From assembly GCF_000237865.1 (NCBI RefSeq), contig NC_017459.1, forward strand, positions 1,290,001-1,322,000: a stretch of DNA of 32,000 nt, in the 5' to 3' direction. Numbering within the stretch: position 1 is the stretch's first letter; every line of letters begins with the position of its first letter. A model generated the notes under the pieces. That model saw only the letters and a list, made by a program, of their open reading frames with translations, searched no databases and was not told the DNA's origin. Positions 2,828 through 24,570 of the stretch are shown here, one piece after another. The position numbers were made by a program, and so were the translations under genes. The stretch comes from Haloquadratum walsbyi C23 (GTDB taxonomy: Archaea > Halobacteriota > Halobacteria > Halobacteriales > Haloferacaceae).

Positions 2828-3038
2828 GCGAGAACAGAGCCACCAGCGCGTGCCTGACCTCATGAGTCACGTTGAATCGCTGAGATTCATACCTACTTCT
2901 ATTGTGATTACGAGTACAGATAGCAGATCATCTACTGTGTCACCAAATCGAGTTCGAGTGTCATCAGTCCCCGAGTATCCGCATTCAATTGAATTAATTC
3001 ATCTCATGCATGTGTAGCAAAATCCATCCTCCTGGGGG

Positions 3039-3693: not shown

Positions 3694-3914
3694 ATCCTCT
3701 GATACACAAAAACCGATTGTGACCCTTAGGTCTGTGCTCTTGGATTCTAGGTTTTGATATGCAGTGATATGTGCTTCTCACTCACTCGATGAGATGCTAA
3801 GACAAATCTGCTGAATAGGATAGCGCGCTAAGACGGGGATTGATGCCTGAATATATCCAAAAACCGATAATATTAGTCGAATGACTTTTGACTGCGGGAT
3901 TATGACTGTTGCGC

Positions 3915-4541: not shown

Positions 4542-4580
4542 AAGAGCACAGACGCCACGGGGTGGTTCATCTCGGCGGAA

Positions 4581-4937
4581 ATGACACAGGCGAGCACAGA
4601 GCGCGTCCATATATTGCTGGCGGCGGGCGCGTTGGATTCCGAGTCGCTGGTCACAGGGCAGTTTCTCGACGGTGCTGATCTTTCAGAGAAGAGTCTCGTG
4701 ATTTTCGGAGCAGGGGGAGATCGGATAACCACTTCTGAGACGCGACTGGAAGCCGGTAAACGATACATCATCGCGGCTGACCCTGATGTTGCGGATGCCA
4801 TCCTCTCGACGTTCCGCGGCGAATCCCTCCCCCGGAGCCTCTGCCCGGTAGATACACGATGCTGTCGTCACGGCGACACTGCTAGTGTCTGCCTGGCTGC
4901 TCGCGTACCGGAACCTGATTGGAGTGTGACTTCTTGA
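4581..4937 (+). CDS. Hypothetical protein (118 aa), possibly co-transcribed with the vWA gene
   Basis: ATG lies 40 nt after the vWA stop. The first ~85 aa look protein-like, while the Cys/Arg-rich tail looks non-native. The region is GC-rich, so long ORFs occur in several frames. Confidence 0.3.
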   Translation: MTQASTERVHILLAAGALDSESLVTGQFLDGADLSEKSLVIFGAGGDRITTSETRLEAGKRYIIAADPDVADAILSTFRGESLPRSLCPVDTRCCRHGDTASVCLAARVPEPDWSVTS

Positions 4938-5074
4938 TATCCAGGATGATGTATCGCGGTTCAAGCCGACGACCTCGGGGCTTGACCCCGGTGTTCACTC
5001 TGAAGTGATTTCTGTGACAATCTGAGGATTATCATAACCATGATAACTTGCCGTTGCAACCATCGAATTGAGGC

Positions 5075-5326
5075 ATGTCCACACTCGTAGGGAGACTCAG
5101 TTCTCGATTGCTCTCGACAGATGATGCTAAATGGAATCACCCACGAATCGCGAGGATGCTCATGGCTATCCTCACACCCATTCTTCTTATCGGTGGATGG
5201 GGTATCGGTCTGGTTGCTCAACATTCTGTGATATTTGGGGGGATTCCACCGATTATCTTCGGAATAGCAACCCTTTTGATTGGATTTATACTTCTTGCTC
5301 TCCTTGATTATGTCTTGTCTGGATAG
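5075..5326 (+). CDS. Small membrane protein (83 aa, 2 TM)
   Basis: Hydrophobic segments MLMAILTPILLIGGWGIGLVA and IIFGIATLLIGFILLALLDYV. Confidence 0.4.
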   Translation: MSTLVGRLSSRLLSTDDAKWNHPRIARMLMAILTPILLIGGWGIGLVAQHSVIFGGIPPIIFGIATLLIGFILLALLDYVLSG

Positions 5327-5484
5327 AAAAAACAGGTTGTGAGAGAATCTTCACGCTTAGAGCCTGGAGATATCATTGATTATATCTCGTAATAATGATG
5401 TCCGTGAGGTATGATTTGACTATCTCTCGCTTCATTGATACAAAAAATGAGAATCCGGGATGACACGAACTGACCGAGTACTTA

Positions 5485-5856
5485 TTATTTCTTCCGGCGA
5501 GACATCCGTGCGCGAGCCTGTCTTCCGCTACTGGACCCAGATCTCCCGCCTGCTGGAGATGTTCGGATGGTAAATGAGTGGGACTGTGAGTTGCTTTTAG
5601 TCCCAAGATTCCCTGCACTGTCACTAACTGTGGCTGTTGAACTGACACTCGGCTGGCGGGGTTCGACTTCATCAGCGCGGTCGACAAGCCGAGCAATAAA
5701 ATATCCTCCCTTATCTACCAACTGAACCTCAAGGGTATCTCCGATATCACCAGCAGGCACATGAATACTCTTGCCAGCATGCTGCTGCTGAGCAATTGGA
5801 TTGCCGCTGTTACTAATACGATCAACCGTCACAGTTTCCGTGTGAGATGTTACCAT
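5485..5856 (-). CDS. TRAM-like small beta-barrel domain protein with a disordered basic tail
   Basis: The N-terminal pattern VTVDRISNSGNPIAQQQHAGKSIHVPAGDIGDTLEVQLVDKGGYFIARLV matches the TRAM-type V.V..I...G..IA....I.V..G..GD...V.L.K..Y.A pattern. The C-terminus is low-complexity S/G/R-rich. Confidence 0.45.
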   Translation of the reverse strand: MVTSHTETVTVDRISNSGNPIAQQQHAGKSIHVPAGDIGDTLEVQLVDKGGYFIARLVDRADEVEPRQPSVSSTATVSDSAGNLGTKSNSQSHSFTIRTSPAGGRSGSSSGRQARARMSRRKK

Positions 5857-6040
5857 TCACCTTGGTTATGTTTTGCATCTTATATAAATCTATTGCACAA
5901 TTAATACAGAAGACATCATCAAATAACTACGTGCGTAGTGCAGCATGAGCAGGCTTCACGGTGGTCGTGTTTGCTCTCACTGACCGATCACATCGCTGGT
6001 ATGTATAGAATTAATAATTAATCCGCTGATCTGATTCAAT

Positions 6041-6343
6041 TTAATTGCACACTCCACAGGAACTCAGAGCGAAAATGTAATCCTGAATAAATATAGCGAC
6101 ACTCGACACGAGTGTCATGAGTGCCATTGCAGTCACAACCCAAATAACCCACTCAGAGGGGAGTAACTCAGACCGATCAGATGTCGTCACCCACTCATAG
6201 CTCACGCTGAATACAACCCCGATTCCACTGATGAGAAATAGTATGCTCGTGAGACCTGTGTCTGACAACCCGATACGAATCAATCCACCACCACAAATCA
6301 CCATTGATATATAATAGAGCAGAAGCGAACGATTCATTTTCAT
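6041..6343 (-). CDS. Small membrane protein, paralog family member
   Basis: MNRSLLLYY...CGGG...YEWVTTSDRSELLPSEWVIWVVTAM aligns with ORF 6660 (MNKSLLYHG...CGG...YQWKTMSDPSVELPADWVVWVMTVM). The true start is probably the second Met (6337). Confidence 0.55.
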   Translation of the reverse strand: MKMNRSLLLYYISMVICGGGLIRIGLSDTGLTSILFLISGIGVVFSVSYEWVTTSDRSELLPSEWVIWVVTAMALMTLVSSVAIFIQDYIFALSSCGVCN

Positions 6344-6659
6344 CTGAAAGTGAACGCGGCTATCAGTAATTGAAGACAGTCAGCTGTTCAATCTGTTGGA
6401 CGTCTTCTGTGTGAAACACACGTGTCATCACGGGGTGGGAATCCTCTGTGGGGTGTTGAGTATAAGCAGTAACAATTCCGTGAGAGGGTTGTGATTGATG
6501 TGTATTCGCCGTGTGGATTTTACTCAGCGTTTGCATCGATGAATCGATATCAAACAACAAATAGCAAACAGCAAATAGCAATCGTCTCTTCTATCAGAAT
6601 GGGATATCGCTTAGCGAGTATGACACAAATCAGAGTTATTGAACCTGTAAGGTGTGATG

Positions 6660-6926
6660 TTATCCAACTCCGAGCACAGTGATGGCTATGAAGCCAATCG
6701 AGATGAATGTCATCACAGTCATTACCCACACAACCCAGTCTGCGGGGAGTTCAACAGACGGATCAGACATCGTCTTCCACTGATATCCACCGACAAGAAT
6801 CACTCCAACGCCAAACAGAACGGACAGTACTCTGTTGAATTCCGTCCCTATCTCCGTCGCTCCGAGAAGTACGAGCACTCCGCCACAACTTAGCAGTGAT
6901 CCATGATACAACAACGACTTGTTCAC
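6660..6926 (-). CDS. Small membrane protein, paralog family member
   Basis: See 6041-6343. Clear residue-level similarity and the same TM layout. Confidence 0.55.
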   Translation of the reverse strand: MNKSLLYHGSLLSCGGVLVLLGATEIGTEFNRVLSVLFGVGVILVGGYQWKTMSDPSVELPADWVVWVMTVMTFISIGFIAITVLGVG

Positions 6927-7155
6927 ACTGGCGGATATTGACGATACATCATATTTCTTGTGCTAGATGTCTCTCTCTCTCGATGAGAATCCAGATGACT
7001 CTCTCTCGTGACGAATGGAAAGACATTATTAACTGTTCAGGACAACGTAAAGAGGACTTCTTTCTTCGAACAGAGTATGACTATGCTATGAGATACCTGA
7101 TTGACCTCTTTGACCCGTCCAAGTGGTGCGTTCCACGAGTCAGCACCGAGTTACA

Positions 7156-7419
7156 CTAGAGAAAGAATGATAACAAAGAGACTACCACGCCAATCAGAAG
7201 CATAGCAAGGAGAATACGACTCCTAAGGGGGCTTAATTCTTCCTCAGGGATTGCCTCAGGCTCATAAAATCCAGAGATGAGTGCACCGCTCAGACAGGTC
7301 AGTGCAAGGGTTGCAACACCCAGCGCTACCGATGATAGCCCCGATTCACTCAAAGCCATCTGTCCCATCCAGAGACTCATAACAAGCATCGAAACGGCAA
7401 GTCCTGAGCGACGATTCAC
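7156..7419 (-). CDS. Small membrane protein, more distant paralog
   Basis: MNRRSGLAV... N-terminus, two to three hydrophobic segments separated by an acidic loop (EPEAIPEEELSP), and the same size and orientation as its neighbours. Confidence 0.45.
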   Translation of the reverse strand: MNRRSGLAVSMLVMSLWMGQMALSESGLSSVALGVATLALTCLSGALISGFYEPEAIPEEELSPLRSRILLAMLLIGVVVSLLSFFL

Positions 7420-7974
7420 ACCTCTTTCCTCGCCTAGCTATGCATATAATTGTGGTGTGGACGCTAGAGTCACTCGGGATGCTCACATTGTCATATCTCA
7501 GGATTTACTCTCTCAACATGCTGACCTTTCCGATTGATATACTCTCGTGTCTATATCCTAAATCGGTGAGAGCTGCATTTTCTTGTTACTCAAATGAAAC
7601 TGAATATATCAGGTTTTGAATTGCTCATTAAATAAATAATAAATCAATTTGAGTACGTAACTGAGATATATATCGTAGGCATGAGACGTGAATCAGCGTT
7701 TACATAGGAGGGAAGAGTCAATTAAGAAGTATCTTGAATATGATCGCGGTTGATACAGACGAAACAGAACCGGAGCAGTGCGGGCGAGCGTAACATAATT
7801 TTGCTTTTGATCACCCTCAAGACTGCTCTAGTTTGTACTCCGCATCCTACATCATAGGAGCGACCGTCGAAGCCGTTGCTTGGGCTTATACTGACTCAAT
7901 TCGTTTAGTCCTATACATTCTGCCAGTGGACTTATGTAGTTTAGTTAGAAGATTTGGATGAGACTATCTACTCA

Positions 7975-8301
7975 ATGACTTGGAAAGAGGATATCCGAGA
8001 AGAACTGATTCGGTATCAAGAAGAGAAAGAACAGCGACAGTTCCGATTACACGATTTCTATGATTACTCAGAGCAGCGACTAGCCTCAAAGCACCCACGA
8101 AATAATCACGTTCGGGCAAAGATTAGACAAGTTCTCCAACAACTGCGGGATGCTGATGAGATTAAATTCGTTGATGATGCAGGAACGTATCATGCTAATG
8201 CCGTTGAGGATTCGGATGAGTCGCAGCAACAAGATACCAATAAGAAAAGCATGGAAATTGGAATTCTTGAACAGATGGAGGGTGAGTTTGAAGATATTTA
8301 A
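7975..8301 (+). CDS. Small stand-alone winged-helix-like protein (DpnI-C / Dam-replacing-protein-type HTH, tentative)
   Basis: The segment HPRNNHVRAKIRQVLQQLRDADEIKFVDDAGTYH resembles the ..KIRQqLQ.LRD.G.i.F...G.Y motif I recall at the C-terminal winged helix of DpnI/DRP-type restriction proteins. The track ORF starts at TTG 7954; the first in-frame ATG is 7975. Confidence 0.45.
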   Translation: MTWKEDIREELIRYQEEKEQRQFRLHDFYDYSEQRLASKHPRNNHVRAKIRQVLQQLRDADEIKFVDDAGTYHANAVEDSDESQQQDTNKKSMEIGILEQMEGEFEDI

Positions 8302-9441
8302 TTATGATCAGGAGTAAAATTCTTTCGACTGCATACAAATATTTTGAGTTTAATTCAGACAGTAGGACAGATGGATGCAATTGAGGTGTGTCTATTGAGA
8401 AATTGTATCTCACAAAGCCATCGATCCACTTGATACTTACAATACATAATCTGCTGGTTAAACCCCCTAACATCACAGTTCGATAAGGAATTAATCCTGC
8501 GCTGCTTAGGGAGTATTAATTTTTTATTAGATATACTCAAGCATTTTGACCTGGTTAAACCGGGTTGCTCTCATTTTAAATATTCTTGACATATGAAATG
8601 AGAGTATCTAAATTTGATTCAAACTCGCTGGCGAATGACATCGGGGACGTGACAGTATCGGTCGTCGCTGGCGGCGAATAGCGCATGAGCGGAGGGCATG
8701 ATATCTCACTGGGTCGTTATTTGCCTGGCGCAAACAGTTCTGGGGCTACTTGAACGCATCCACTTCGCTGTCACCACGGCAGCGCTGTTGACCCCTGATT
8801 GGGTGCTCCCGTGATATGATCTCATGATACTGTGACCTCTCTACCAATCAGGATTGGAGGACCCGTGATATGGTTCAAAAAGATGTCGAGAAATGAGTAA
8901 GGTGGGGTGTCTCGAAGTGCATACGACTCCTACTCATGTGTGATAAGAATGGTCATCGTCTGCGACTGACTCCGGAGTTGATGACCCAGAATGCTCAGTC
9001 ATTCTCCGGGTATTGAACAGTTTGAAACACTTGTTCGAATCACTCGCCCCGATAGGAGATCGACGACTCAGTTGTTTGCTATGTTGTGGCAATTTATGCC
9101 GGTGAAACCTGAGGAGTTAATATTGCTACTGGCGTCCCGTTAGGGGGCCACAACATAACTTTAATATCAATATCTCTATCAGATGCTCCCCGGACCTTGC
9201 CGACAACACCGTCCAGACCCCCATCACTGAAATGTTGAGTCTTTGGAAACCGGACGTAATCAGTTCCACATGCTATTATACATCTGTTCTAATCACTGAC
9301 CCTATGTGCCCACATGTCTTGTGCGAGTTTATTAAACACATTTGCGCTCACTTGGATTGTTTTCTTTTCAATCATAGCCAGAATCTAATTTCACTGTGAT
9401 TTAGACAATCATATAGAAGGAGTTACTATTATCTGAATGAT

Positions 9442-10539
9442 ATGTTGGTTTTAGATAATAACTGGGGAAATGTCCCAGAAAGATTCATTAGAAACCTTGC
9501 ATATGTGAGTAGCATGCAGGATAATCTCTTACCCATCTCGTATTACGCAGGGGTATTAGACTCACTAGCGAGGGTTCAATTTGATATTCAACAAGATGAG
9601 GGAGAGACAACGTTCACAGTTCGCTCATCGCTCCGAATTCGCACTCAAGATGATTCTCATCTTACTAGTCTGATTGGAGAATTTCTTGAGGCACATGACA
9701 TTGAATTCGATATTTTCTCTAGACAGAATACGTATAATTATTTTCACGTCTTTTTCAGAAAAGATATTAGAAAAATCAGACGACTGCTGAATGGCGAATC
9801 AACCCAACTGATTCGTGAACTATCATTTGTGGTCGGTCCGTATCAGAAACATTTTAACACCAAAATTCTAGAACCACCTGAGGTATACCGATTAATAACA
9901 GCAATCTATGAATTATTTTTTGACCAACGGTTAACTCCCAAATGGCATCCGAAGCCAAAGCAGTTCGCGAGTAAATTCAATATTAGTACAGACTCACTCG
10001 ATAAAATAGATATTCCAGTTGGTACTTTTAGAGATAACTATCCGGTTGAATACATAGCAGGGATCATAGACGCTTTAGCTGCTTTCAGACCTGGAATACA
10101 TACTACATCATACAGTATTGGTTATGGGATGACTCCAATAATTCGGATTCATCGAGGAGGGGTTCATCCAGCGTATGCATGTGCAGTGAAACAATTCTGT
10201 AATAATACTGGATTGAGCTCCAACTCCATGGGTCAAATCAATAGTTTAAATACAGTCATTCAGGGTGCAAATGCGATCGATTCGTTCGCTCCCGAAGTAG
10301 GTCCATATATGATTGCAAAAAAAGACAAACTCGCATATTTAGATAAAGAACTCATTCCGCGGTTCCTGAGTGGTGAACACCACTCAAAACAGGGGTTATA
10401 TGATTTGTTGGTTGATTTTCAGTCAATTATTAATACTAATACGGGTGAAGATCGATCATCTCAGTACACGCCAGAGTATTTTGAGAAAGAATGGGAGGGT
10501 GAAATTAATCCTGCAGATCAAAGAGCTCCTCATAAGTAG
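9442..10539 (+). CDS. Hypothetical protein with two LAGLIDADG-like motifs (possible free-standing homing-endonuclease-like protein)
   Basis: 365-aa ORF in very AT-rich DNA. The motifs are YYAGVLDSLARVQF (about aa 34-47) and EYIAGIIDALAAFRPG (about aa 203-218), each with an Asp at the canonical acidic position. The assignment is tentative. Confidence 0.55.
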   Translation: MLVLDNNWGNVPERFIRNLAYVSSMQDNLLPISYYAGVLDSLARVQFDIQQDEGETTFTVRSSLRIRTQDDSHLTSLIGEFLEAHDIEFDIFSRQNTYNYFHVFFRKDIRKIRRLLNGESTQLIRELSFVVGPYQKHFNTKILEPPEVYRLITAIYELFFDQRLTPKWHPKPKQFASKFNISTDSLDKIDIPVGTFRDNYPVEYIAGIIDALAAFRPGIHTTSYSIGYGMTPIIRIHRGGVHPAYACAVKQFCNNTGLSSNSMGQINSLNTVIQGANAIDSFAPEVGPYMIAKKDKLAYLDKELIPRFLSGEHHSKQGLYDLLVDFQSIINTNTGEDRSSQYTPEYFEKEWEGEINPADQRAPHK

Positions 10540-10858
10540 TCAATTCAATAATTCACTTCGGAGTCGCTGATCTGCATCAGTAACGAGCCTTACATCGTAT
10601 TTTTCACTAAATTCGAACATTTGTTCTACGTTATCAATCGCGAGTCCAATGTCACCTCTTTGTTTATACATCCTAGTCTTAAACCGGTAAGATTTGACCA
10701 CGAGTGTCTTTGCGTCATACCATGGCAGAGCCTCGTATCCGTAACTGAGGGCCTCTTCAACGGCATCAAGACATTCGTTGGTGGGTCGATCACGTTTTTT
10801 AGCACGCGCCAGTCGATAGTTTGCATCACCAAGCAGAATACTGGCCGCTTTTTGATGA

Positions 10859-10866
10859 TTGTCTGA
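10859..10866. repeat. Target-site duplication, left copy (TTGTCTGA)
   Basis: Identical 8-mer at 11869-11876, immediately outside the inverted repeats. An 8-bp duplication is typical of the IS1595 family. Confidence 0.85.
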
Positions 10867-11868
10867 CGCTCTTGTGAAGTACATTGTTGGTGAGTCAGAG
10901 AACTTCTCGGATAATCTGTTTCAGTGCTTCTTGTCCCGGTTTGCGGAGGATTCGTCGCCGAAGTTGGAACGGCCTGAGATATGCTGTCAGTTTGTCCTTT
11001 GAGACGCCTCGATGCGGCGAGAGCCACCGTCGCGCCAGCGACGCGTGGCTCTCGCACGTGTTCACATGTGCGTCTCCATCAACGTACTCGCCGTCACCGT
11101 GAATTACTGATTCTCGGTGGAAGCTCTCATCATTGTCGAGTGGATCGTAGGCACGAAATCCGTCAGTATAGATGCTCAGCGACTCCTTCTCGTGGTTGTC
11201 GAGAAGGAGTCGCACGGTCGTTTCATCGGCGGATTTCGCTGGGACGACGTATCGCTGACCGCTGCCCCGATCAACGAGCGTGAACACTGGCGGTTTATCA
11301 CCCTCATACGTTCCTCGTCCGCGTTTCGAGAGGGCACGCGAGCGCGACTCTCGATCGCGCTCGCGACCTTTCTTCCCAGCAGAGACATAGAACTCGTCGA
11401 TCTCGACCGGTCCAACGAGATCGATTGTTGGCGCGTCGAGCGTTCTGGCGAACTGCTCGACGCGCCGGTGAAGCGAGCGATACGAAACGTCAATTTCAGC
11501 GTCTAACTGGCGGATACTCGTGTTGAACCGGAGGAACGAGTAGAACGCGAACAACAGCTTATCGAGGCCGATCTTCGCGTGCGCAAAAATCGTGCCGGTT
11601 TTGTCGTTGAACGTGCGGTCGCAATCCTTACACAGGTACCGTTGATACTCTCGATAGCTGCCGTGTTTGATTACCGACTCAGACTGGCAGCGCGGGCAAC
11701 AGAGGCCCTCTCGCCAGCGAACCTGCTCCAGCAGGTTCGCGGCGCTCGCCTCTGAGCTCAGCAATTCAAATGGGAACATTGCGTTCAGGTGACGCGTCGC
11801 GTCACTCTTGCCCGCTACGCTTTCACGGCGATAGCTTTACCCGACCAACAATCTGCTTCAGAAGAGCG
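10867..11868 (-). mobile_element. IS1595-family insertion sequence (1002 bp), apparently intact and recently inserted
   Basis: 25-bp terminal inverted repeats match 22/25: 10867-10891 is cgctcttGtgaagTaCattgttggt, and the reverse complement of 11844-11868 is cgctcttCtgaagCaGattgttggt. A perfect 8-bp direct repeat TTGTCTGA flanks the element (10859-10866 and 11869-11876). It carries a single transposase ORF. A 17-nt palindrome gtgacgcgTcgcgtcac (11789-11805) sits upstream of the transposase ATG. Confidence 0.88.
10895..11779 (-). CDS. IS1595-family (DDE) transposase with N-terminal zinc ribbon
   Basis: 294 aa. The N-terminal Zn-ribbon is CCPRCQS...CKDCDRTF, followed by a DDE-type core (EIDEFYV..., IYTDGFRAYD...). 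This matches the haloarchaeal ISH-type IS1595 transposases I recognise. Confidence 0.9.
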   Translation of the reverse strand: MFPFELLSSEASAANLLEQVRWREGLCCPRCQSESVIKHGSYREYQRYLCKDCDRTFNDKTGTIFAHAKIGLDKLLFAFYSFLRFNTSIRQLDAEIDVSYRSLHRRVEQFARTLDAPTIDLVGPVEIDEFYVSAGKKGRERDRESRSRALSKRGRGTYEGDKPPVFTLVDRGSGQRYVVPAKSADETTVRLLLDNHEKESLSIYTDGFRAYDPLDNDESFHRESVIHGDGEYVDGDAHVNTCESHASLARRWLSPHRGVSKDKLTAYLRPFQLRRRILRKPGQEALKQIIREVL

Positions 11869-11876
11869 TTGTCTGA
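11869..11876. repeat. Target-site duplication, right copy (TTGTCTGA)
   Basis: See 10859-10866. Confidence 0.85.
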
Positions 11877-12651
11877 ATCCATTGCATAATACATTTGTTG
11901 AACATTATCACGTATCATCTCTAATGTGTCTGCAGATTTGATATTCGCCAAGGATGCTTGCGTAAGTTTATTTACTACTCGTTGCTGTATTTCTACAGTG
12001 CCATTGTCGTATGTCTCTCGTAATTGAGTGCAAGTCTCGTGCCAGTCAACCCCCTTTTCAAGTGACAATGATTTAATAAAATCGTGTTGTTGAAACTTAT
12101 CACTCTGCCAAACAACCGTATCAGTGAGTGAAATCGCGTAGGCTGGTTCATTATCATTATTCTGGCTAAACTGTAGCTTTGGTTCCGAACCAATAAATCG
12201 GGGCTTCTGTCGATCGTCTAGAATATTACTATGAAGCATCACGAGTTCTTCTGTGTCCAGTTCAATAACGCGAGTCTTGCCACTATACGGCGACACCGCT
12301 AAGTAGGACCCATCAGCAGAGAGTGACACGAATGGAGAACTCTCATTTAATTCGATTCGAGATAGCAAGTCTCCCGATTCATTTCTGACTATCACTTCAC
12401 TCCCTGTTGAAACGCCGTACTCACGCCAGTCGGCAACAGCTGCTGTGCCTTCTTCAGATCGGGCAGTGCTTCGTGGATTGACTAGCCGCTCATGAAAAGT
12501 TGGGTCGCCGTCTGTCAGAAGTACTGTATGACCATTGTTCTCCGGAGTTCCGTAACGATGTGCAATCTGGTACTTCGCACCTGCTGGGCGAGAGGAAAAC
12601 TGCAAGCTCTCATCCTCAATGGGCAATTCAATCCAACATTTATTATCCAGT

Positions 12652-13080
12652 TCACTCATCTCTGCCAGTTGTCGAAGACTTGTTGATAATATCTTTGCTT
12701 ATGCTGCTGAATAGATTGCCCGGTCCCGTATACTGGCTATAAAGTTGATTGACACCACCATTGGCGAACTCCCTAGCCACTTCGTATATACCAGCGCCAT
12801 CTTTGAGCATTTCTGAATCTTCAACCTCCTTTACTGCGATAGACTTGAGGATCCAGACTTGACTCTCACTAAGAGATCTCCGCTGGAATAGTGCATGTCT
12901 CGAATCTTCAAGCTCTGTTCGCAAACCCTTATTATACCCATAACACGCTGCAAAGACAAACAAATCATTTAGATTCTCACCATGGAATGGAGAGTCTTCA
13001 CTTTCTGTTAGCTCACTAAACATCTGCCGCTTATTCTTAGGGATATAAATATCTCGGGGGGCACCTGAATCATCGACCAT
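12652..13080 (-). CDS. Small helical protein, DndE-like / Dnd-associated-protein-like (tentative)
   Basis: 142 aa. ATG at 13078-13080 overlaps the DndD-like gene by 11 nt. The pattern DLFVFAACYGYNKG...FQRRSLSESQVWILKSIAV...EVAREFANGGVNQL resembles, from memory, small DndE / 'DNA phosphorothioation-associated protein 4'-type proteins found beside DndD homologs. This needs an HMM check. Confidence 0.5.
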   Translation of the reverse strand: MVDDSGAPRDIYIPKNKRQMFSELTESEDSPFHGENLNDLFVFAACYGYNKGLRTELEDSRHALFQRRSLSESQVWILKSIAVKEVEDSEMLKDGAGIYEVAREFANGGVNQLYSQYTGPGNLFSSISKDIINKSSTTGRDE

Positions 13081-15040
13081 ACTCTCTCACCTCAGTCTGA
13101 CCGTCCTCAAAATTAAGCCGATACTCATTCCCGACACGGTGTTTCATAAGATTTCTCACATTATCGTCATACTCTGTGTCGGTCATCAGGAACGTTATCT
13201 GACTGTCTTCAAGATATGTTGGTAGATTCTGAGCGATTCGTTTTCGATTCTCACTAGCGATTCTGCCAAGCGGGGTGTCAATTATAATTGGTGCCTGAAA
13301 GCCGCTGATGTCCGATAGTGCAGCCATGAAAGAGAGTGCTAACACCTGGCTTTCACCAGCAGAAAGTGACCCGATTCGATTATCTGAACTATCCGGTCCG
13401 CTGACTTCGATACCATAATCTTCTGTTAGGTGGATAGTATATTCTTCAGCTTTCCATATAAGTTCATTAAAATATTGATTGAGATTTTTTTGTGTATCTT
13501 CACGAATCTGACCCAAAATAGTATTGCGGATTGAATCTATCTCCTCAAGTGCCGTGTCAGCAAACTCAACTTGATTGATTATCTCCTTATGACGATTTTG
13601 CTTCCTTGCTTCTTTTCGAAACTCCTTTTCCTTCTTCTGTTTCCGCTTGAGGTTTGAATCTATTTTTGCCTCAATCCTTCCTACTTCTGTTTCCAATTCA
13701 GACTTTTGTTTTTCTAGATCATCTTGTTGCTTTGACAGAGCACTAACATTTATATCATCTGGGACGTCGAATCCTTCCAGTTTTGCCTTCGTTTCCATGA
13801 GATCACTATCTGTTTGTTCAATTTTCTTGGACAAATCGGTCATTCGTCGTCGTCTTTTTTCAAGCTCTTCAGCCCGATTGTTCCCATCTCGGATGATTCG
13901 TGGAATCTCTGCCTTCCCCTCAAGATTATCTGTTGATACCTCTGAGGCATTCTCAAGCGTCTGCTCAAGATGCTTGCGAGCGTCACTATCATCCATAATT
14001 TCACGACCGCAGATGCACTCACCTTCATCGATGAGTTCACGGACGAACCAGTCTTGGATCTTCGGTGGAAGCTGTCCCTTTTGTTCCATCTCAATGAGAG
14101 TCTCATGGGTATAGTTGAGAGCATCCAATGTGAAGACAGCAGGACCAGCCATATTCAATCGTTTACATGATTCAGACCGTGCCTCAGATTTTTTCCGTTT
14201 CAGCCGATCAATCTTTTGTTCAAGCCTCTCCCGTTCCTCTACAAGATTGCGAGCCCGATCATTAGCTGCACCTCGGAGATCATCTTTTATATCAGAAATT
14301 TTCCGAGTAATCTCCTCAATATCTTTTTCCTTCTGACTTTTTTGAGTTCGTTTATTAGATATGGTTGTCTCAATTTCTTCAATGGTATTTTGAATCTCAC
14401 TTGGCCGACCCTCAAACTTATTCGCTTTACGTCTAATTTCTTTTTTAACAGTTTCGAGATGATCATGTGAGCTGTTTAACAAGCCGATATGTGAAACATC
14501 AACAATTGCGTTTTCAACACGTTGCTTATATCCTGCTTCGAAAAATTCTGTCAGAGCCTCACCATCAAACAAGAAGTAGTCCTTTACCCTTGGAGGTAAT
14601 ATCTGATTGAGCGTATTATTTGGATTTTCGATGATTTTATATTGACTGCCTACTCTCCGACGTAATTGTAGCTCATCAATGTCATCGTTGTATGAGCCAT
14701 TAGCAATCTTATATGTGGTGAATTGTCTTTCAAAAATATATCTCGGCTCTGATTCTCCGAGTTCAACTTTCACCTGCCCACTCTTTGACTCTCCAGCACT
14801 TAGATTTTCAAGTGCGTCTTCTGTTACCAATGGCAATGTTTCCATATCATCGCTTCGAGACTCTTGATGGAGTTCGCGTCCGTAGAAGCATAGCGTAAGC
14901 GCGTTAAGAATATTTGATTTGCCTGCGCCATTCTGTCCTTCAATAATATTTATATTCGTACTCTTCTCAGTCCTGAGATTAACCGTCTGTGTGCCAGAAT
15001 ACTGTCGGTAATTTGATATTTCAACAGAAAGTAATCGCAT
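13070..15040 (-). CDS. DndD-like SMC/Rad50-type ABC ATPase with central CxCG hook
   Basis: 656 aa. The N-terminus MRLLSVEISNYRQY...IIEGQNGAGKSNILNAL carries Walker A. About aa 190-500 is K/E/R-rich coiled coil interrupted by QLPPKIQDWFVRELIDEGECICGREI (Cys codons at 14015-14017 and 14009-14011). ABC signature is SLSAGESQVLALSF and Walker B is APIIIDTPLGRI. Size and layout match DndD-family proteins. Confidence 0.8.
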   Translation of the reverse strand: MRLLSVEISNYRQYSGTQTVNLRTEKSTNINIIEGQNGAGKSNILNALTLCFYGRELHQESRSDDMETLPLVTEDALENLSAGESKSGQVKVELGESEPRYIFERQFTTYKIANGSYNDDIDELQLRRRVGSQYKIIENPNNTLNQILPPRVKDYFLFDGEALTEFFEAGYKQRVENAIVDVSHIGLLNSSHDHLETVKKEIRRKANKFEGRPSEIQNTIEEIETTISNKRTQKSQKEKDIEEITRKISDIKDDLRGAANDRARNLVEERERLEQKIDRLKRKKSEARSESCKRLNMAGPAVFTLDALNYTHETLIEMEQKGQLPPKIQDWFVRELIDEGECICGREIMDDSDARKHLEQTLENASEVSTDNLEGKAEIPRIIRDGNNRAEELEKRRRRMTDLSKKIEQTDSDLMETKAKLEGFDVPDDINVSALSKQQDDLEKQKSELETEVGRIEAKIDSNLKRKQKKEKEFRKEARKQNRHKEIINQVEFADTALEEIDSIRNTILGQIREDTQKNLNQYFNELIWKAEEYTIHLTEDYGIEVSGPDSSDNRIGSLSAGESQVLALSFMAALSDISGFQAPIIIDTPLGRIASENRKRIAQNLPTYLEDSQITFLMTDTEYDDNVRNLMKHRVGNEYRLNFEDGQTEVREYGR

Positions 15041-15237
15041 TAACTGTCACCGCTCTCCATGTATTGTTTAATTAGATTTTTATAATCTTCCTTATACTCA
15101 AAATTATCCTTACCCATATTTCCTCTCTCAATCTTTAATATCTCTTTAATAAATCCTTTCAATTTACTGTCGGAAATCCCGTCAACTTCAGATGTGATCA
15201 ATTCATTGACTTCTTCTGAATCCATCAATATATGCAT
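15040..15237 (-). CDS. 65-aa K/E-rich micro-protein, translationally coupled to the DndD-like ATPase
   Basis: Its stop TAA overlaps the downstream ATG by one base (TAATG, 15038-15042). No recognisable domain. The start could instead be the Met at aa 5. Confidence 0.45.
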   Translation of the reverse strand: MHILMDSEEVNELITSEVDGISDSKLKGFIKEILKIERGNMGKDNFEYKEDYKNLIKQYMESGDS

Positions 15238-15307: not shown

Positions 15308-17350
15308 TTATAACTGAAATTCACGCTTAATATCTTGCAATTTCAACCGAGCCCTTGTTTCATTGAGTGCAGTTTCGGCAAATTCTTCAAACCGTTCCAA
15401 TTCTCGTTCGAGAATCCCTCTCTCTGAGGCGCCAAGTTCAGAATCAGATTCCACAGCCGGGACGACTATCATATCATATATACTCGCTTTCTCTTTCCCA
15501 CTCTCTGGGTGCTGTCTTAATACCCGGCCTCGGCGCTGGACAAACTCCTTAGGATTACGATTATTTGCCATCAGGATGGCCTGCCGCGTGGAGGGCACAT
15601 CAACCCCTTCATCAAGACATTTCATCGCAACAAGAGCCTCATAACGTCCGTCTGCAAAGGCAGAGAGTAGTTTCTGACGTTCCTCGTCATCTTCCTCTGC
15701 TGTAAAACGATGTTGTACGATACCCCGGTTAGTCATTCGCTGTTGTACTTCATCTATTTGCTGGTAATTTGTATACACAAGAAGGTGGTCAATATCTATC
15801 TCATCAAGTATTTTCTCAATTTCACTATATTTTTGCTTTGCACTTTTCAGTATATTTGCTCGTTTTGTGAGCAACCTTTCCCGAGTTTCTTCGACTGTGT
15901 CATCATCGCTGTCGCCTAAACGTGCCAATTTATGTGAAATTTTCTTGTAGCGAGCGAGCTCTTCCCCATCCATCTCCACTATCCGTGGATAATACTCATA
16001 CGGTGTCAGATACTTTGGAATTGCATCGGCTAATGTATATTGAAAGACAATGTCATCAAAGTAGTTTGACAGAAATTCTGTCCCCTCTTCATCATAGTAA
16101 CGTTCAGGCGTCGCAGATAGCCCTAATCGATAATTAAACTGTGGAACTAAGCCCTTACGCCGAATCTCAGCACCGAGATTATGCACCTCATCAGCTATAA
16201 TGAGACTATCAAACGGGATTGATTTGAGTTGATTACGAAAGAAGTCTGTCGATCCGGTCTGATGGGTGGTAATAATTATTTCTCTATCTGTAAACCCTAA
16301 TTCCAAACCATCAATTGTTGTCTGTAGTGCTGACTTCCAATCAGAGCAGTGCGACCCATATAGTAATTTATATGAAGTATAGTCGAAATCATCTAAACTA
16401 TCTGCCCATTGCTTCGCCAGATGCGTCATAGGAACGGTTATAACGGCGAGCATTGGATCATCTTGATATTCATACTCTCGCAGTATATCACGCATAGCAC
16501 CAATAGCGGTGTATGTCTTTCCAGTCCCAGTGGCCATCTTGAAGAGACCGTGGCGGCCATTATTATGCCAGTTATTAACAGCAGTCTGCTGATAATCACG
16601 AAGTGATATTTTACTCACAGTATGATTGGTCTCTATATTATCCGGGGGTGTATATGGGCGTTCGTCTGTTGTTCTTAATTGCTTGATATCTTGCTCTATG
16701 CTCTCAGGAGGTGTAATAGTCGTTATATTTTTCTTCTCGTTATTCCATAAATCGTCAAATCGACGCTCATGAATGTCCACAGCCTCTGCTTCACGATTGC
16801 CCATCCAGTCACAGTCAATCGTGTATGCCTCATAATTCTCAAACGCGTGCTGGCTATCATTTTGAGATCCATGAAAAGCAATACGGTGACCTTCCGTATC
16901 CTGAGCAATTCCAAACTTGTCATGAAACTGACCACGCAGCGATCCATGAGGTATTGCAAATTTGAGTTCAAGGAGTCCATCAGCAATCATCCAAGCAACT
17001 GCGTTGCGAGTTTCGCTATGAAGTTCCTCCTCAAGGGAGCTTATTGATGATTCTAGTGCTGACTTTAATACTTCGTCAGAACGAGCAACTCCTCCCTTCT
17101 TGATTGCCTCCCAGTCTTTCTCTGAGAGGATTGGACTTGTAATCCATCTCGCAACACCTCCATTTTCGACGAGATTTATTACTCCCCGACTGGCTGACTC
17201 AAGCCATCCAGTTGTGAAGTAGCCAACTCCGCGCTTGTACTCGATGGCATGAGTAAGCATTGGAACATAAAACTCTGAGATAAAGTTGTTTTCTGAAGTC
17301 TCAATCACACGTGGCCAGTCGATACTGGAAAAATCAGCCGAAGGTGTCAT
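15308..17350 (-). CDS. Fusion protein: N-terminal single-HKD phospholipase-D-family nuclease domain + SF2 (ResIII/ERCC3-type DExH) helicase
   Basis: 680 aa. HKD motif is FHDKFGIAQDTEGHRIAFHGSQND (nt 16859-16924). Helicase motifs: I MATGTGKT, II IIADEVH, III LGLSATPER, VI QRRGRVLR. Confidence 0.9.
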   Translation of the reverse strand: MTPSADFSSIDWPRVIETSENNFISEFYVPMLTHAIEYKRGVGYFTTGWLESASRGVINLVENGGVARWITSPILSEKDWEAIKKGGVARSDEVLKSALESSISSLEEELHSETRNAVAWMIADGLLELKFAIPHGSLRGQFHDKFGIAQDTEGHRIAFHGSQNDSQHAFENYEAYTIDCDWMGNREAEAVDIHERRFDDLWNNEKKNITTITPPESIEQDIKQLRTTDERPYTPPDNIETNHTVSKISLRDYQQTAVNNWHNNGRHGLFKMATGTGKTYTAIGAMRDILREYEYQDDPMLAVITVPMTHLAKQWADSLDDFDYTSYKLLYGSHCSDWKSALQTTIDGLELGFTDREIIITTHQTGSTDFFRNQLKSIPFDSLIIADEVHNLGAEIRRKGLVPQFNYRLGLSATPERYYDEEGTEFLSNYFDDIVFQYTLADAIPKYLTPYEYYPRIVEMDGEELARYKKISHKLARLGDSDDDTVEETRERLLTKRANILKSAKQKYSEIEKILDEIDIDHLLVYTNYQQIDEVQQRMTNRGIVQHRFTAEEDDEERQKLLSAFADGRYEALVAMKCLDEGVDVPSTRQAILMANNRNPKEFVQRRGRVLRQHPESGKEKASIYDMIVVPAVESDSELGASERGILERELERFEEFAETALNETRARLKLQDIKREFQL

Positions 17351-17614: not shown

Positions 17615-20600
17615 ATGACACAACCAATGGGTGAGACTGATATTCCAACATTACAAGATGCATGGGATCCTCGAGAAGATGTTCTCCAGGGTAAAATTCG
17701 AGATGAGAGTCTTGCTGCTGATGCACACGAAGTTGCATATGGGAATAACGTGCCGGATGTATATGATGATACAGAGACGTTCTTCGATTTAACATATCCA
17801 ACATCTGGTGTCACGGGTGTTATCGAAGCGGTTGCTCAACGTGTGATTGCGCATTATCGTGGTGAGTTCCCGGAAGAAAATGGGACTATCACGCTTGACA
17901 CGTCATTTGGGGGAGGAAAGACGCACTCCCAAATTGCCGCATACCATCTTGCTGAACATAGTGACGAAATTCCTGATCTAACGCGATACACACAAAGTGA
18001 CGAAACAGCTCATGAGTATCGCGCTCTCGAAAATAATAAATCAGTACTGACGTCTGTTTTTGTCGGGACAAAGTACGCGCCGAAACCGGTCAAGCCAAAA
18101 CAAGTCCGGCAAGGCGAGCATACCCCAGAAATACAGACAATCTGGGGACATATCGCCTATCAATTGTATGGTGTTGAAGGATATCAGGTAGTGAGTAGTG
18201 GGAATAATCTCGTTGCTCCTGGTGAGCAGTTGCTCAGTAATCTGTTTTCACTGTCTGATGAGGCGGCTGTTATCATTATGGATGAGATTGCGGCTCACTT
18301 ATCTCACGCAACCGCTGTGTCTGTTAATGATGGAAATCTCGCAGAACAGACGCTCAATTTCTTGATGGCGCTGTTCAATTATGCGTCAAACAATAGTGAT
18401 GTGACGGTGATCATGAGTGTTGCAGCTGACGCATTCGAAGATTTCGCGACGATTTTCGAACGCGACCTTTCTTACGATGATGAGGTGATGGATGCCGATG
18501 TTTCCATCCCGATTGCAAAAGAGACCATTCAGGAATTTCAGAATATTGAGGAGCGTGTCGCGAATAAAATCACTCCGGTTGAGGACAGTAATGTTGCAGA
18601 CGTCCTGCGAAATCGGTTATTCAAAAATAACATCGAGACTGGATTGCGTGAGGATATCGCTCAACGATATTACGACTTCTATGATGCCGATAGTAGTTCA
18701 TTCCCAGATGAAGCCTCACAGCCGGAAGCACGCGAACGAATTGAGCAAACATATCCGTTTCACCCAACAGTCGTCGACACGCTAACGAAGCAGATTGATG
18801 CCGTTCCATCATTTCAGAAGGCTCGTGGAGCACTCAAGTTACTTGCCCCAGCCGTCATGCGATTATGGACTGATGAAGGTCAGGGTCCACTGACAGCAGA
18901 TCGTGAGCTGATTCGTCTGTATGATTTACATCCACAGGATGAGCGCACGAGCAAGATGCTGAAGAGTATCTTTGGTGATATTGAGATGGACTTTGAGCCT
19001 GCGGTGAAGGATGACATATACAATACGGATCCGAATGATACACCAAATGCCCTGTATGAGGATAAATATTGGATCAATCGAGGGCAGCCACCACTCGGAA
19101 CCCGAGTTGTAACGACGACAATTTGGAAATCACTCGTAAAAGGTGCAGGAAGCAAAGGAACGAGTCGTGATTACATTAGATACGCGAGCGCGAAGCCTGG
19201 TGAGACGATTGATCACTACAATAGCGCCATCGGGAATCTCCTTGGTGAGAGCGATGAGTCAGCATGTTTCTACTTACATGGTGAGAATAACCAACAATTG
19301 AAATTCAAGACGATTGTCACAGTCGAGAAAGCGATTAATCAGGCGAATCCGCGCACAAGTCGTGTTGATAATCTGCTTGATGAGACGTTATACAATGCCG
19401 CACTTGGTGGATCCTCAATGACAATCTATGAAAACCCACAGGCTGTGCATGAGGTTGACGATACGATTGAGACGCTCGGACAGCTTGTGGTTGTTGAGCC
19501 GTCGACACTCACGATTAGTGAGCCAGATGATATTACAGAAACTGTTGTCACAAAAATTTATGAGAGGTCCGCAAGCTCCAAGCACGGAAACAAGAAGCCG
19601 CGAACGTATAAGAACAATCTAATTTTTCTCGTGCCGGGTATCAGGATTTCGCGCGCTCGGAGCAAGGCAGGTCGCCTCGCTTCGGTTCGCGTTGTACAGG
19701 ATAATCCAGATGATTTTGGGTTGCAGGATGCGCAGTTAGATGAACTCCCAACAAAGCGAGATGAAGCGCGTGGTGATCTTGAGAACTTGGTTAAGAACGC
19801 GTATTCACATGTATATATCCCGAGCAATCCGTCGCCAGACCAACCACATGAAGGACTTGCACATTACAATATCACCGTTACTGACAGTACACTTATTAAC
19901 GCAGTTATCGCCAAATTGGAGGATTCTGGAGAAGTTATTACAAATAATGAGCCAGCGTACAGCCCGAACTGGTTAGAAAATAACCTCTGGATGGCTGTTG
20001 GCGATTCAATGACAACAGTTGAGCTGAAACAACAGATTGGAAAGCAGCGCAGTGCGGAGATATTGCTTGACCCGCGTCCACTACAGAAAACAATCAGGCG
20101 GGCTATTAGAGAGTCCGACAGCAAATTCGCCTACTGGAACCATCACCACGAGCGTGGGTATGTGGATCCAAGTGCATTTGAGGAAATATTTGATGAGCGT
20201 AATGAGACGGTCACATTCGATGAGGCGCATAATCTTGTCGCCGCAGAAGAGCTTGAGGACGTGGGTATTGACAGCTCAGAAGAAGTATATGAATCGACTG
20301 AAACGCTGATAGAGAGTGTCGCCGTTACATGGCAGTGCTCTGATTGTGGTGATTACTTGGACTCAACACGCGAGTATGCTGAGCACTCATGTCAGATAGA
20401 AATTGAGTGCGGACAATGTCCTGACACCTTCTCAACTCAACAAGAGTATGAACAGCACTTACCATGTGGTACAAATTACGACTGTAGTAACTGCGGGCGG
20501 ACGTTCAATACAGAAGAGTCACTCACCGAGCACCAACCGTGTCCATGGCCGCAAACAGTAGTAGGGAAGACGGATAGTCCAGCGGTTGTCACTGAAGCTG

Positions 20601-21067
20601 TCGATACGATTACCGCAGAGATTGAGGATAAGGTGACCCAAATCAAACACAACTTCAACAGTTCAACACATGAAATCAAGCAGTCATTGGACGGACTGAC
20701 TCTCAAACTACAGGGAGATGACGCGTGGAAGAAGGGTGAGTGGATTGCCAAACAGATGCCAGAGCAAGATGGACTTCAGAATGTTGCTGTCGAACTTGAG
20801 TATGAGGCACGATATGATGACAGTCATGTTGAGACTCACTTCGATGGTACTGGCAAAATGTTTGCAGACACACTCAAACATACAAACAAACCGAGTGGGT
20901 CACCAGATGATCAGTATATTGAAATCTTGATCAAGGCTGACACATCACTTGAATTAAATCGGCTTGATATTCTTGAGGATATTATCCCTGGTGCGACGAC
21001 TATCGAAATGAGTGTGAGAACAGCTCTTGAATTGACCGAAGATGAGAAACAAGAGATGACTCCATAA
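17615..21067 (+). CDS. DUF499-type P-loop ATPase (PbeA-like) with a C-terminal triple C2HC zinc-finger insert
   Basis: 1150 aa. The N-terminal pattern ...ESLAADAHEVAYGN..PDVYDD.ETFFDLTYPTSG... is followed by Walker A TSFGGGKTHS and Walker B AVIIMDEIAAH, which I recognise as typical of the DUF499 family. Three CxxC-x12-H-x(1-2)-C units lie at nt 20330-20542. Confidence 0.8.
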   Translation: MTQPMGETDIPTLQDAWDPREDVLQGKIRDESLAADAHEVAYGNNVPDVYDDTETFFDLTYPTSGVTGVIEAVAQRVIAHYRGEFPEENGTITLDTSFGGGKTHSQIAAYHLAEHSDEIPDLTRYTQSDETAHEYRALENNKSVLTSVFVGTKYAPKPVKPKQVRQGEHTPEIQTIWGHIAYQLYGVEGYQVVSSGNNLVAPGEQLLSNLFSLSDEAAVIIMDEIAAHLSHATAVSVNDGNLAEQTLNFLMALFNYASNNSDVTVIMSVAADAFEDFATIFERDLSYDDEVMDADVSIPIAKETIQEFQNIEERVANKITPVEDSNVADVLRNRLFKNNIETGLREDIAQRYYDFYDADSSSFPDEASQPEARERIEQTYPFHPTVVDTLTKQIDAVPSFQKARGALKLLAPAVMRLWTDEGQGPLTADRELIRLYDLHPQDERTSKMLKSIFGDIEMDFEPAVKDDIYNTDPNDTPNALYEDKYWINRGQPPLGTRVVTTTIWKSLVKGAGSKGTSRDYIRYASAKPGETIDHYNSAIGNLLGESDESACFYLHGENNQQLKFKTIVTVEKAINQANPRTSRVDNLLDETLYNAALGGSSMTIYENPQAVHEVDDTIETLGQLVVVEPSTLTISEPDDITETVVTKIYERSASSKHGNKKPRTYKNNLIFLVPGIRISRARSKAGRLASVRVVQDNPDDFGLQDAQLDELPTKRDEARGDLENLVKNAYSHVYIPSNPSPDQPHEGLAHYNITVTDSTLINAVIAKLEDSGEVITNNEPAYSPNWLENNLWMAVGDSMTTVELKQQIGKQRSAEILLDPRPLQKTIRRAIRESDSKFAYWNHHHERGYVDPSAFEEIFDERNETVTFDEAHNLVAAEELEDVGIDSSEEVYESTETLIESVAVTWQCSDCGDYLDSTREYAEHSCQIEIECGQCPDTFSTQQEYEQHLPCGTNYDCSNCGRTFNTEESLTEHQPCPWPQTVVGKTDSPAVVTEAVDTITAEIEDKVTQIKHNFNSSTHEIKQSLDGLTLKLQGDDAWKKGEWIAKQMPEQDGLQNVAVELEYEARYDDSHVETHFDGTGKMFADTLKHTNKPSGSPDDQYIEILIKADTSLELNRLDILEDIIPGATTIEMSVRTALELTEDEKQEMTP

Positions 21068-21071
21068 CTGC

Positions 21072-21698
21072 ATGAGCGGAACACAATACAATTCAGAGCC
21101 ATTCGCATTTACTGCAGGTCGATATGGTGATCGACCGGTTTTCATATTGACACGGCGGTGGAAGCAGAAAGGACCAGAGGTGACACTGTATGAGCTTGCG
21201 CCAGATAATATCGCACAGACGCGTAGGGAGCGATTTGATGATATGTCATCGTCGGCAAGTCTGACAATTCACGAACTCCCTGATATCATCGCAGACGGTC
21301 AGACACCGAATGATATCAAAAGTGGTCACGGTGACGGGACACATGACTGGTCGAACTGGCAAGCGTTGAAGATTGTAACGCTCGGTGGTGAACGAAACAA
21401 GATCGCGATTAGTTCGCTTGTGAGACCAGTACTCACTTCTGGGGAATATGATACGGATTCGGTCTGTGTCGGGAGTGACGGCTCGCTTGCAGTATCAGAG
21501 TCGGTCGGCATTCGGTTGTCAATTGGATTTCGAGCGTTGCGCCCAGTCAGAAAGCAGAATCGACTTCAGGCGATTGCTGATGGGGTGAGTAATATGACAC
21601 TTGGTGAGTGTTACTATTGGCATGCCAAAATGCGGTCGCCAACGGTTCCGAGTGGTGCAAAGGCACTTCGAATACTTCTCAGTAGTCACATTAACTGA
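21072..21698 (+). CDS. Small conserved-slot protein (position of DUF3780/PbeB in DUF499-DUF1156-helicase clusters)
   Basis: 208 aa. Starts 4 nt after the upstream stop and ends 2 nt before the next ATG. I recognise no motif, so the assignment rests on gene order only. Confidence 0.5.
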   Translation: MSGTQYNSEPFAFTAGRYGDRPVFILTRRWKQKGPEVTLYELAPDNIAQTRRERFDDMSSSASLTIHELPDIIADGQTPNDIKSGHGDGTHDWSNWQALKIVTLGGERNKIAISSLVRPVLTSGEYDTDSVCVGSDGSLAVSESVGIRLSIGFRALRPVRKQNRLQAIADGVSNMTLGECYYWHAKMRSPTVPSGAKALRILLSSHIN

Positions 21699-21700
21699 TC

Positions 21701-24553: not shown

Positions 24554-24570
24554 TCAAGAGTGTATTGCTC

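Follow-up and report, generated by a model that had tools for sequence, protein, structure and literature searches.

The DndD-like gene pair of Haloquadratum walsbyi C23 as the probable PbeC/PbeD half of a solitary Pbe defence cassette

We analysed a stretch of 32,000 nucleotides of the Haloquadratum walsbyi C23 genome (NC_017459.1, positions 1,290,001 to 1,322,000; hereafter, the window), in which an earlier note had flagged a pair of minus-strand genes, for proteins of 656 and 142 amino acids (aa), as resembling dndD and dndE of the DNA phosphorothioate (PT) modification systems and as lying beside a Pbe-like module. Both open reading frames (ORFs) lie exactly at the coordinates given for them (13070-15040 and 12652-13080). 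We found, however, that the pair is not a neighbour of the module but one half of it: judged from sequence, the two genes are almost certainly pbeC and pbeD of a complete pbeA-pbeB-pbeC-pbeD operon, a solitary PbeABCD defence cassette centred on an ABC ATPase of the CxC type. The locus as a whole is, with high confidence, best explained as the solitary Pbe cassette of H. walsbyi C23, devoid of PT writers, to which this haloarchaeal lineage adds two further genes, which we call X and Y, and, in most related loci, adjoining methyltransferases (MTases). The earlier observation is largely correct although the module boundary was mis-drawn, and the first of its three readings, discussed below, comes closest to the truth.

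The minus-strand ORFs follow one another in the order pbeA, pbeB, pbeC, pbeD and then the 5′ part of gene X (Table 1). Their start and stop codons overlap, by 1 nt where the stop of pbeB meets the start of pbeC (TAATG), by 11 nt between pbeC and pbeD and by 8 nt between pbeD and X, consistent with one pbeABCD operon. A PLD-helicase upstream of the DndD-like gene had been seen as occupying the slot of DndC; the gene is present there, but its product is PbeA (PADLOC model PDLC02707, E 4.6e-224) and, thus, part of the module. PbeA also matched TIGR04095 (dnd_restrict_1, 'DNA phosphorothioation system restriction enzyme') with 429 bits, which is below the cut-off of 600, and contains the Pfam domains ResIII, DEAD and Helicase_C. 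The sequence FHDKFGI..D..G..IAFHGSQNDS was invariant across eight aligned PbeA homologues, and helicase motifs I (GTGKT) and II (DEVH) were conserved as well. The next protein, PbeB (isoelectric point 4.5), had no match among family models; it was called as 61 aa on metagenome contigs and is 33-47% identical to the ORFs found at the same position in Natronomonas aquatica, Halobaculum rubrum and Halococcus dombrowskii. PbeB proteins evolve fast and have about 60-70 aa; that of Haloterrigena jeotgali is 66 aa long (PMC6459918).

The 656-aa protein matched the PADLOC model of PbeC, PDLC02723, over its full length (E 4.6e-234, 776 bits), while the best PADLOC model of DndD reached only 2e-59. The likeness to DndD that had been noted is nevertheless real, since the alignment with the DndD model TIGR03185 (E 1.1e-51) runs from one end of the protein to the other, though its 176.2 bits fall short of the curated cut-off of 245.85. 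The Walker A, ABC signature, Walker B and CxC motifs were invariant in four aligned PbeC homologues, and the 656-aa protein has one single CxC; this motif was absent from the two genuine DndD proteins that we inspected. The CxC clade is defined by this motif, and PbeC-type CxC ABC ATPases form the sister clade of DndD (PMC10853773). A scan of genome contigs with PbeC led to a single locus, that of N. aquatica.

For the 142-aa protein the proposed likeness to DndE could not be shown directly; the protein belongs to the dnd_assoc_4 family. It matched TIGR04062 with E 1.4e-11 and 44.8 bits (cut-off 74.25), and PF27807 (DNA_S_mod_dnd_assoc_4) is precomputed for it and for all 14 of its close homologues. 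A profile of the PbeD family found 543 representative clusters (E<=1e-3), and 120 of 122 aligned representatives matched TIGR04062, whereas none of the 122 matched DndE. PbeD itself matched neither the PADLOC model of PbeD nor the DndE models in Pfam and NCBIfam; no DndE chains were found in the PDB with shallow or deep PbeD profiles, and hhalign against two genuine DndE sequences gave probabilities below 1% (0.06-0.4%, the DndE profile being very shallow). Measured against the Dnd models, the two flagged proteins are below the DndD cut-off and without a DndE match, respectively, but they belong to the PbeC and dnd_assoc_4 families. PbeD has been described as a 'clade-2 DndE' with two ribbon-helix-helix (RHH) domains (PMC10853773). 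The helix pattern of an AlphaFold2 (AF2) model built from the 14 close homologues, with a predicted local distance difference test score (pLDDT) of 49, is compatible with the two-RHH description but is no proof of it. Because the profile and hhalign tests were negative, we do not claim homology of PbeD to DndE from this analysis, and the relationship rests on the published description. Some proteins of the PbeD family are of about 300-330 aa, that is, of double length (representatives P0051, P0056, P0059, P0069 and others), and one of 930 aa has seven matched stretches, which suggests tandem repeats or fusions of PbeD-like domains in the long family members.

We could confirm that neither DndC nor DndA is encoded in the window. 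Pfam and NCBIfam scans of its ORFs of at least 80 aa gave no match to PAPS_reduct, Aminotran_5, DndB or DndE, and every ORF of at least 300 aa was accounted for. When genuine DndA, DndB, DndC and DndE of two plasmid-borne dnd clusters, one on an Agrobacterium Ti plasmid and the other on a Chlorohelix plasmid, were used as tblastn queries, the window returned only noise (best E 0.23); genuine DndD had pbeC as its sole match there, with 24-25% identity. The published record agrees. In the PbeAC table of Xiong et al. 2019 (Supplementary Data 4, PMC6459918), the entry for H. walsbyi C23 (NC_017459.1) gives PbeA at 1305446-1307290 and PbeC at 1303091-1305040 and marks DndC, DndD and MTase as 'non-existing'. 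After subtraction of 1,290,000 these ranges become 15446-17290 and 13091-15040 of the window, the end of PbeC falling exactly on the position of the start codon. As the same C23 locus has been catalogued without DndC and DndD, the flagged feature is already known and belongs to the 'solitary' class. It requires no new biology, because most Pbe modules, 320 of the 553 PbeAC loci, are solitary, without dnd genes (PMC6459918), and CxC systems occur independently of Dnd (PMC10853773). In this genome the cassette is very likely to be PT-independent.

Gene X, which follows pbeD, is split by an insertion sequence (IS) of the IS1595 family. The element carries the Pfam domains DDE_Tnp_IS1595 and Zn_ribbon_IS1595, shares 93.8% identity with ISNph2 of Natronomonas pharaonis and has terminal inverted repeats of 26 nt that are 88% complementary. 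The truncated X ORF (11823-12659, 278 aa) runs into the IS and ends at 11823. Its X-derived part is 100% identical to residues 1-264 of an intact 369-aa protein encoded on a metagenome contig (L002), and residues 256-369 of the intact protein matched window positions 10884-10543 at 96% (tblastn). The same contig is 99.9% identical to the window over 17665-11869 and 10866-8227 and has an empty IS site within an uninterrupted 369-aa X gene. The intact allele of X was found on at least six further contigs, from three Joint Genome Institute (JGI) metagenomes and three Logan sequencing runs. Since environmental contigs 99.9% identical to the window are without the IS, its insertion is recent or strain-specific. 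Homologues of X formed only nine clusters among 5.8 billion proteins, all of about 368 aa. The AF2 model of intact X (pLDDT 87) has a β-propeller-like N-terminal half and an α-solenoid C-terminal half; Foldseek with this predicted structure returned only generic WD40-plus-solenoid scaffolds with low TM scores, matches that indicate a fold class and imply no function.

Gene Y had no match in library scans, and its product shows 100% identity to a protein of H. walsbyi. A profile of five Y sequences, however, matched endonucleases of the I-LtrI/I-OnuI type among PDB sequences (I-LtrI, I-PanMI and I-SmaMI, E 2.9e-9 to 1e-2). An internal repeat was detected in Y, and two homologues gave weak matches to Pfam LAGLIDADG_1. 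Position 8 of motif 1 was Leu in 14 of 14 homologues, and position 8 of motif 2 was L, K, A, Q, R or C in the 14, D or E in none of them. As read from these alignments, Y is a double LAGLIDADG fold in which neither catalytic acid has been retained. A paralogous Y-like module, 29% identical over 327 aa, makes up the N-terminal part of an HNH endonuclease of 505 aa that is encoded on a plasmid of Halobacterium salinarum (Table 1), and we infer that the fold of Y may serve as a DNA-targeting module without nuclease activity of its own. Several Y homologues are named '5-methylcytosine-specific restriction protein A' by JGI, a name that was probably carried over from Y-like/HNH fusions. We also considered Y as a selfish homing endonuclease parked beside the operon. 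This was rejected, because all 14 homologues have lost both active sites and because Y remains linked to X even between loci where the identity of PbeC is down to 40%.

Table 1. Coordinates of the Pbe cassette, of genes X and Y and of neighbouring features (window positions unless a contig is named)
Feature	Position	Strand	Remarks
pbeA	15308..17350	-	680 aa; HKD (PLD-type) nuclease domain fused to SF2 helicase; PADLOC, NCBIfam, Pfam
pbeB	15040..15237	-	65-aa ORF; probable start M5 at 15225, giving 61 aa; small acidic protein
pbeC	13070..15040	-	656 aa; CxC-type ABC ATPase; PADLOC PbeC
pbeD	12652..13080	-	142 aa; dnd_assoc_4 family; TIGR04062, PF27807
HKD active-site motif of PbeA (H143-D-K145...GSQNDS)	16853..16924	-	alignment with 8 homologues
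CxC motif of PbeC (C342-I-C344)	14009..14017	-	predicted Zn hook at coiled-coil apex
Walker A of PbeC (GQNGAGKS, residues 35-42)	14915..14938	-	invariant columns G35-S42
Gene X, 5′ part (codons 1-264 of 369)	11869..12659	-	start overlaps pbeD stop by 8 nt
Gene X, 3′ part (codons about 265-369 and stop)	10540..10866	-	severed by the IS
ISNph2-like IS1595-family element	10867..11868	-	1002 bp; transposase ORF 10895-11779
8-bp target-site duplication, copy 1	10859..10866		TTGTCTGA on + strand; direct repeat; single copy in uninterrupted contig
8-bp target-site duplication, copy 2	11869..11876
Gene Y	9442..10539	+	365-aa ORF, convergent with X; homologues suggest start M25 (9514)
LAGLIDADG-like motif 1 of Y	9541..9576	+	YYAGVLDSLARV; position 8 = Leu
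LAGLIDADG-like motif 2 of Y	10051..10086	+	YIAGIIDALAAF; position 8 = Leu; aligns with catalytic E29 of I-LtrI
505-aa Y-like protein with C-terminal HNH_2	8971-10488 of L020		Halobacterium salinarum pKBTZ02_38; next to parA, no pbe genes nearby
DUF499 ATPase (HmaC-like, C2H2 zinc fingers), DUF7680, 950-aa N6-MTase (HmaB/DUF1156-like), PLD-SNF2 helicase (1210 aa)	17615-28197	+	divergent from pbeA
950-aa methyltransferase	21701-24553	+
DISARM-like DrmB (610 aa) and DrmA (613 aa)	28297-31967	-
DpnI C-terminal winged-helix domain only	7954-8301	+	115-aa ORF; PF17726, E 3.2e-15

The arrangement pbeABCD-X-Y was found on the chromosome of Natronomonas salina, on contigs of Halobacterium salinarum, on plasmids of H. 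rubrum and H. dombrowskii and on several metagenome contigs, Y adjoining X at eight loci. At the two plasmid loci, where Y follows X on the same strand, PbeC is 40-42%, X 25-32% and Y 23-25% identical to the proteins of the window, and among 72,556 plasmids a full-length X occurred only at these two Pbe loci. In most of the related loci a pair of MTase genes adjoins the cassette, one for an N6_N4 MTase fused to GHKL/HATPase_c (about 970-990 aa) and one for an N6_N4 MTase of about 510-536 aa. A search of the window for remnants of the relatives' N6_N4 MTase, MutH and GHKL genes gave only noise. The first reading of the earlier note, that the pair had been exapted into a modification-independent nuclease system, stands as far as a PT-free role in a nuclease system is concerned, a role already published (PMC10853773); 'modification-independent', however, goes too far, because N6_N4 MTases adjoin the cassette in close relatives. 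In N. aquatica (L001), an ORF of 659 aa at 13030-15009 lies downstream of pbeABCD, without X or Y, and is followed by an MTase; this ORF has a cytidine-deaminase-like region (residues 72-168) and a region like the GyrA C-terminal domain (E 2.3e-91). An SbcCD-like pair lies upstream of the N. aquatica cassette.

LAGLIDADG, propeller and TPR partners of CxC systems are not mentioned in the text of PMC10853773, and one of its supplements contains no relevant terms. We did not find the linkage of X and Y to haloarchaeal Pbe described, Krishnan et al. 2020 being outside this scope, and the association of X, Y and MTases with the cassette would represent a modest, testable addition. That study is reportedly the first description of CxC systems. 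On the conservation of the gene neighbourhood, we favour, with moderate confidence, X and Y being functional parts of the Pbe system. We more tentatively propose, at somewhat short of an even chance, an undescribed haloarchaeal sub-type of Pbe/CxC systems, composed of pbeABCD, a dead double-LAGLIDADG reader, a propeller/solenoid scaffold or sensor and an N6_N4 MTase pair that replaces phosphorothioation, of which C23 would be an MTase-less, IS-damaged example. In the cassette, a PbeC dimer joined via the CxC zinc hook would form, with the small DNA-binding PbeD, an ATP-driven DNA-scanning core (PMC10853773, PMC6459918). PbeA would be the effector, translocating on DNA and then nicking or cutting it or blocking replication, and PbeB would act as a small acidic regulator. 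Y might provide sequence-specific DNA binding without cleavage, X might serve as a scaffold or sensor, and the mark of self-DNA in this lineage would be base methylation instead of PT. The chances that the C23 copy is impaired appear to be even: its cognate MTases are missing and X is split by the IS, while the other five genes are intact.

The resemblance to DndD and DndE, which the earlier note thought might reflect just the generic fold of SMC/Rad50 ABC ATPases in a pair unrelated to Dnd or Pbe, might seem to do so in a Pfam scan, where the 656-aa protein shows only the generic domains AAA_23 and SMC_N and the 142-aa protein has no match. This reading is, however, refuted by the specific, full-length matches of PADLOC and NCBIfam to PbeC (776 bits) and to DndD models (176-200 bits), as against SMC, Rad50 and RecF models that cover only about 60 N-terminal residues, with the P-loop, or the coiled coil, and also disagrees with the canonical PbeA-B-C-D order of the context; we give it practically no weight. 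A conventional PT-dependent Pbe module, whose self-DNA would be marked in trans by dndCDEA located elsewhere in the H. walsbyi genome, has in its favour that Pbe is PT-dependent in the only experimental system (PMC6459918) and that modification and restriction genes need no adjacency. Yet H. walsbyi (C23, DSM 16790 and J07HQW2) appears in the PbeAC table only, the genome-wide DndCD tables passing alphabetically from Halomonas to Halorubrum (PMC6459918), which makes in-trans dnd genes unlikely; moreover, no dnd genes lie within 10-12 kb at any of eight related loci, where there are N6_N4 MTases instead. We, thus, regard this second reading of the earlier note as very improbable. Methylation might alternatively be supplied by the neighbouring divergent operon of a DUF499 ATPase, DUF7680, an N6-MTase and an HKD-SNF2 protein, whose 950-aa MTase (HmaB-like, E 2.5e-48) starts 4.35 kb from the start of pbeA. 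Pairing of solitary Pbe with MTases has been suggested, 155 of 320 having an MTase within 10 kb (PMC6459918). This MTase, however, belongs to a self-contained system related to Type-2 BREX (PMC12839542) with an HKD-helicase effector of its own, it is unrelated to the N6_N4 MTases of the Pbe relatives, and the relatives do not share the DUF499 operon as a neighbour, so that we consider such a mark improbable.

A stronger competitor is a C23 copy that no longer functions and survives as a decaying relic; having lost its cognate MTases, the cassette would have been tolerated only once inactivated, and the IS in X would be part of the decay. X is indeed split by an IS1595 element that is missing from environmental contigs 99.9% identical to the window, no homologue of the relatives' N6_N4 MTase pair lies in the window, and the flank below 9.4 kb contains gene fragments (the DpnI_C-only ORF, a vWA fragment and an IS4 N-terminal trace). 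It has also been proposed that solitary Pbe is possibly inactive (Xiong et al. 2019, PMC6459918). In contrast, pbeA, pbeB, pbeC, pbeD and Y are full length, the catalytic motifs of the Pbe genes are intact, and the IS-free cassette is present on at least six further environmental contigs, which points to recent or ongoing selection on the cassette. We lean against a relic, while regarding it as a substantial possibility.

Several points weigh against the solitary, PT-independent cassette with X and Y as its parts. PbeA, PbeC and PbeD are all below the curated NCBIfam cut-offs and are, therefore, divergent members of their families, and no test here tied PbeD to DndE, its AF2 model being poor. 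The absence of dnd genes genome-wide rests on the published survey, our own scan having been confined to the 32 kb. In the sole experimental study Pbe activity was PT-dependent, with no DNA cleavage seen (PMC6459918), and a PT-less copy may, thus, do nothing. The proposed roles of X and Y come solely from their gene neighbourhood. Neither gene accompanies pbeABCD in N. aquatica or Haloprofundus, Y and the operon are convergent in the clade of the window, and a Y-like module also occurs outside Pbe contexts.

The surroundings of the cassette contain further defence genes and gene fragments. The operon at 17615-28197, complete and separate from the cassette, fits the PADLOC 'Hma' system and is related to Type-2 BREX (PMC12839542), its small gene being DUF7680 instead of DUF3780; an exact-sequence look-up of the DUF499 protein gave no match. 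Its 950-aa MTase lies within the 10 kb for which Supplementary Data 4 of Xiong et al. 2019 gives 'MTase non-existing', and was probably missed by the published table because it is atypical. The DrmA ORF covers only positions 549-1108 of the 1165 of its model, the N-terminal half being split off or beyond the window end. Positions 1-9400 of the window are poor in long ORFs and contain the vWA fragment (3909-4541) and the weak IS4 N-terminal trace (6041-6343), as well as the DpnI_C-only ORF, which is possibly left over from a methyl-directed restriction enzyme. No tRNA genes were found in the 32 kb. According to the same published table (PMC6459918), PbeAC of H. walsbyi DSM 16790 (NC_008212.1, 1300720-1306395) has the opposite orientation, and an MTase of about 516 aa lies next to it. 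The two PbeAC pairs are at a nearly identical chromosomal coordinate; this position, with the pair reversed and accompanied by an MTase in DSM 16790, suggests a defence-island hot spot with exchange of cassettes.

The locus is catalogued, the system is of a known kind, and its interest is modest. The analysis sharpens a question left open in 2019 and 2024, namely what substitutes for phosphorothioate in solitary Pbe systems. The recurrent haloarchaeal partners (N6_N4 MTases, the dead LAGLIDADG protein and the propeller/solenoid protein) provide concrete candidate genes, and the natural pair of alleles, with X split by the IS in C23 and intact in environmental contigs, offers a ready case for comparison.

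Compared with DndD and DndE of DndABCDE, PbeC aligns with DndD over its full length at 24-25% identity, and both ATPases have a small downstream partner; PbeC, however, scores below the DndD cut-off and has the CxC motif, its partner has no DndE match, and DndC, DndA and DndB are absent from the window. Y shares two tandem LAGLIDADG domains with I-LtrI, I-OnuI and I-PanMI (profile E 2.9e-9) but, unlike single-chain LAGLIDADG endonucleases, is without catalytic acids, lies outside any intron or intein and is conserved beside a defence operon, and its paralogue relies on a fused HNH domain as the nuclease. The PbeABCD of Haloterrigena jeotgali A29 (dndCDEA-pbeABCD, PMC6459918) has the same four genes in the same order as C23, with an HKD-helicase as PbeA and with similar sizes of PbeB (about 61-66 aa) and PbeD (about 142-152 aa). 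In contrast to the A29 system, C23 has no adjacent dndCDEA, and none in the genome according to the published survey (PMC6459918), while X, interrupted by the IS, and Y come after pbeD. With the CxC ABC-ATPase systems described by the Aravind lab in 2024 (PMC10853773), the C23 cassette has in common the zinc-hook ATPase, its small partner, there described as 'clade-2 DndE', the HKD-SF2 helicase and a small disordered protein. Those systems are often Dnd-independent and sometimes linked to DNA methylases (PMC10853773). The window itself is without the N6_N4 MTase of its relatives; the methylase partners in the published systems are cytosine-5, permuted N4 and MTaX1 enzymes, whereas the relatives of the C23 cassette carry X, Y and a GHKL-fused N6_N4 MTase.

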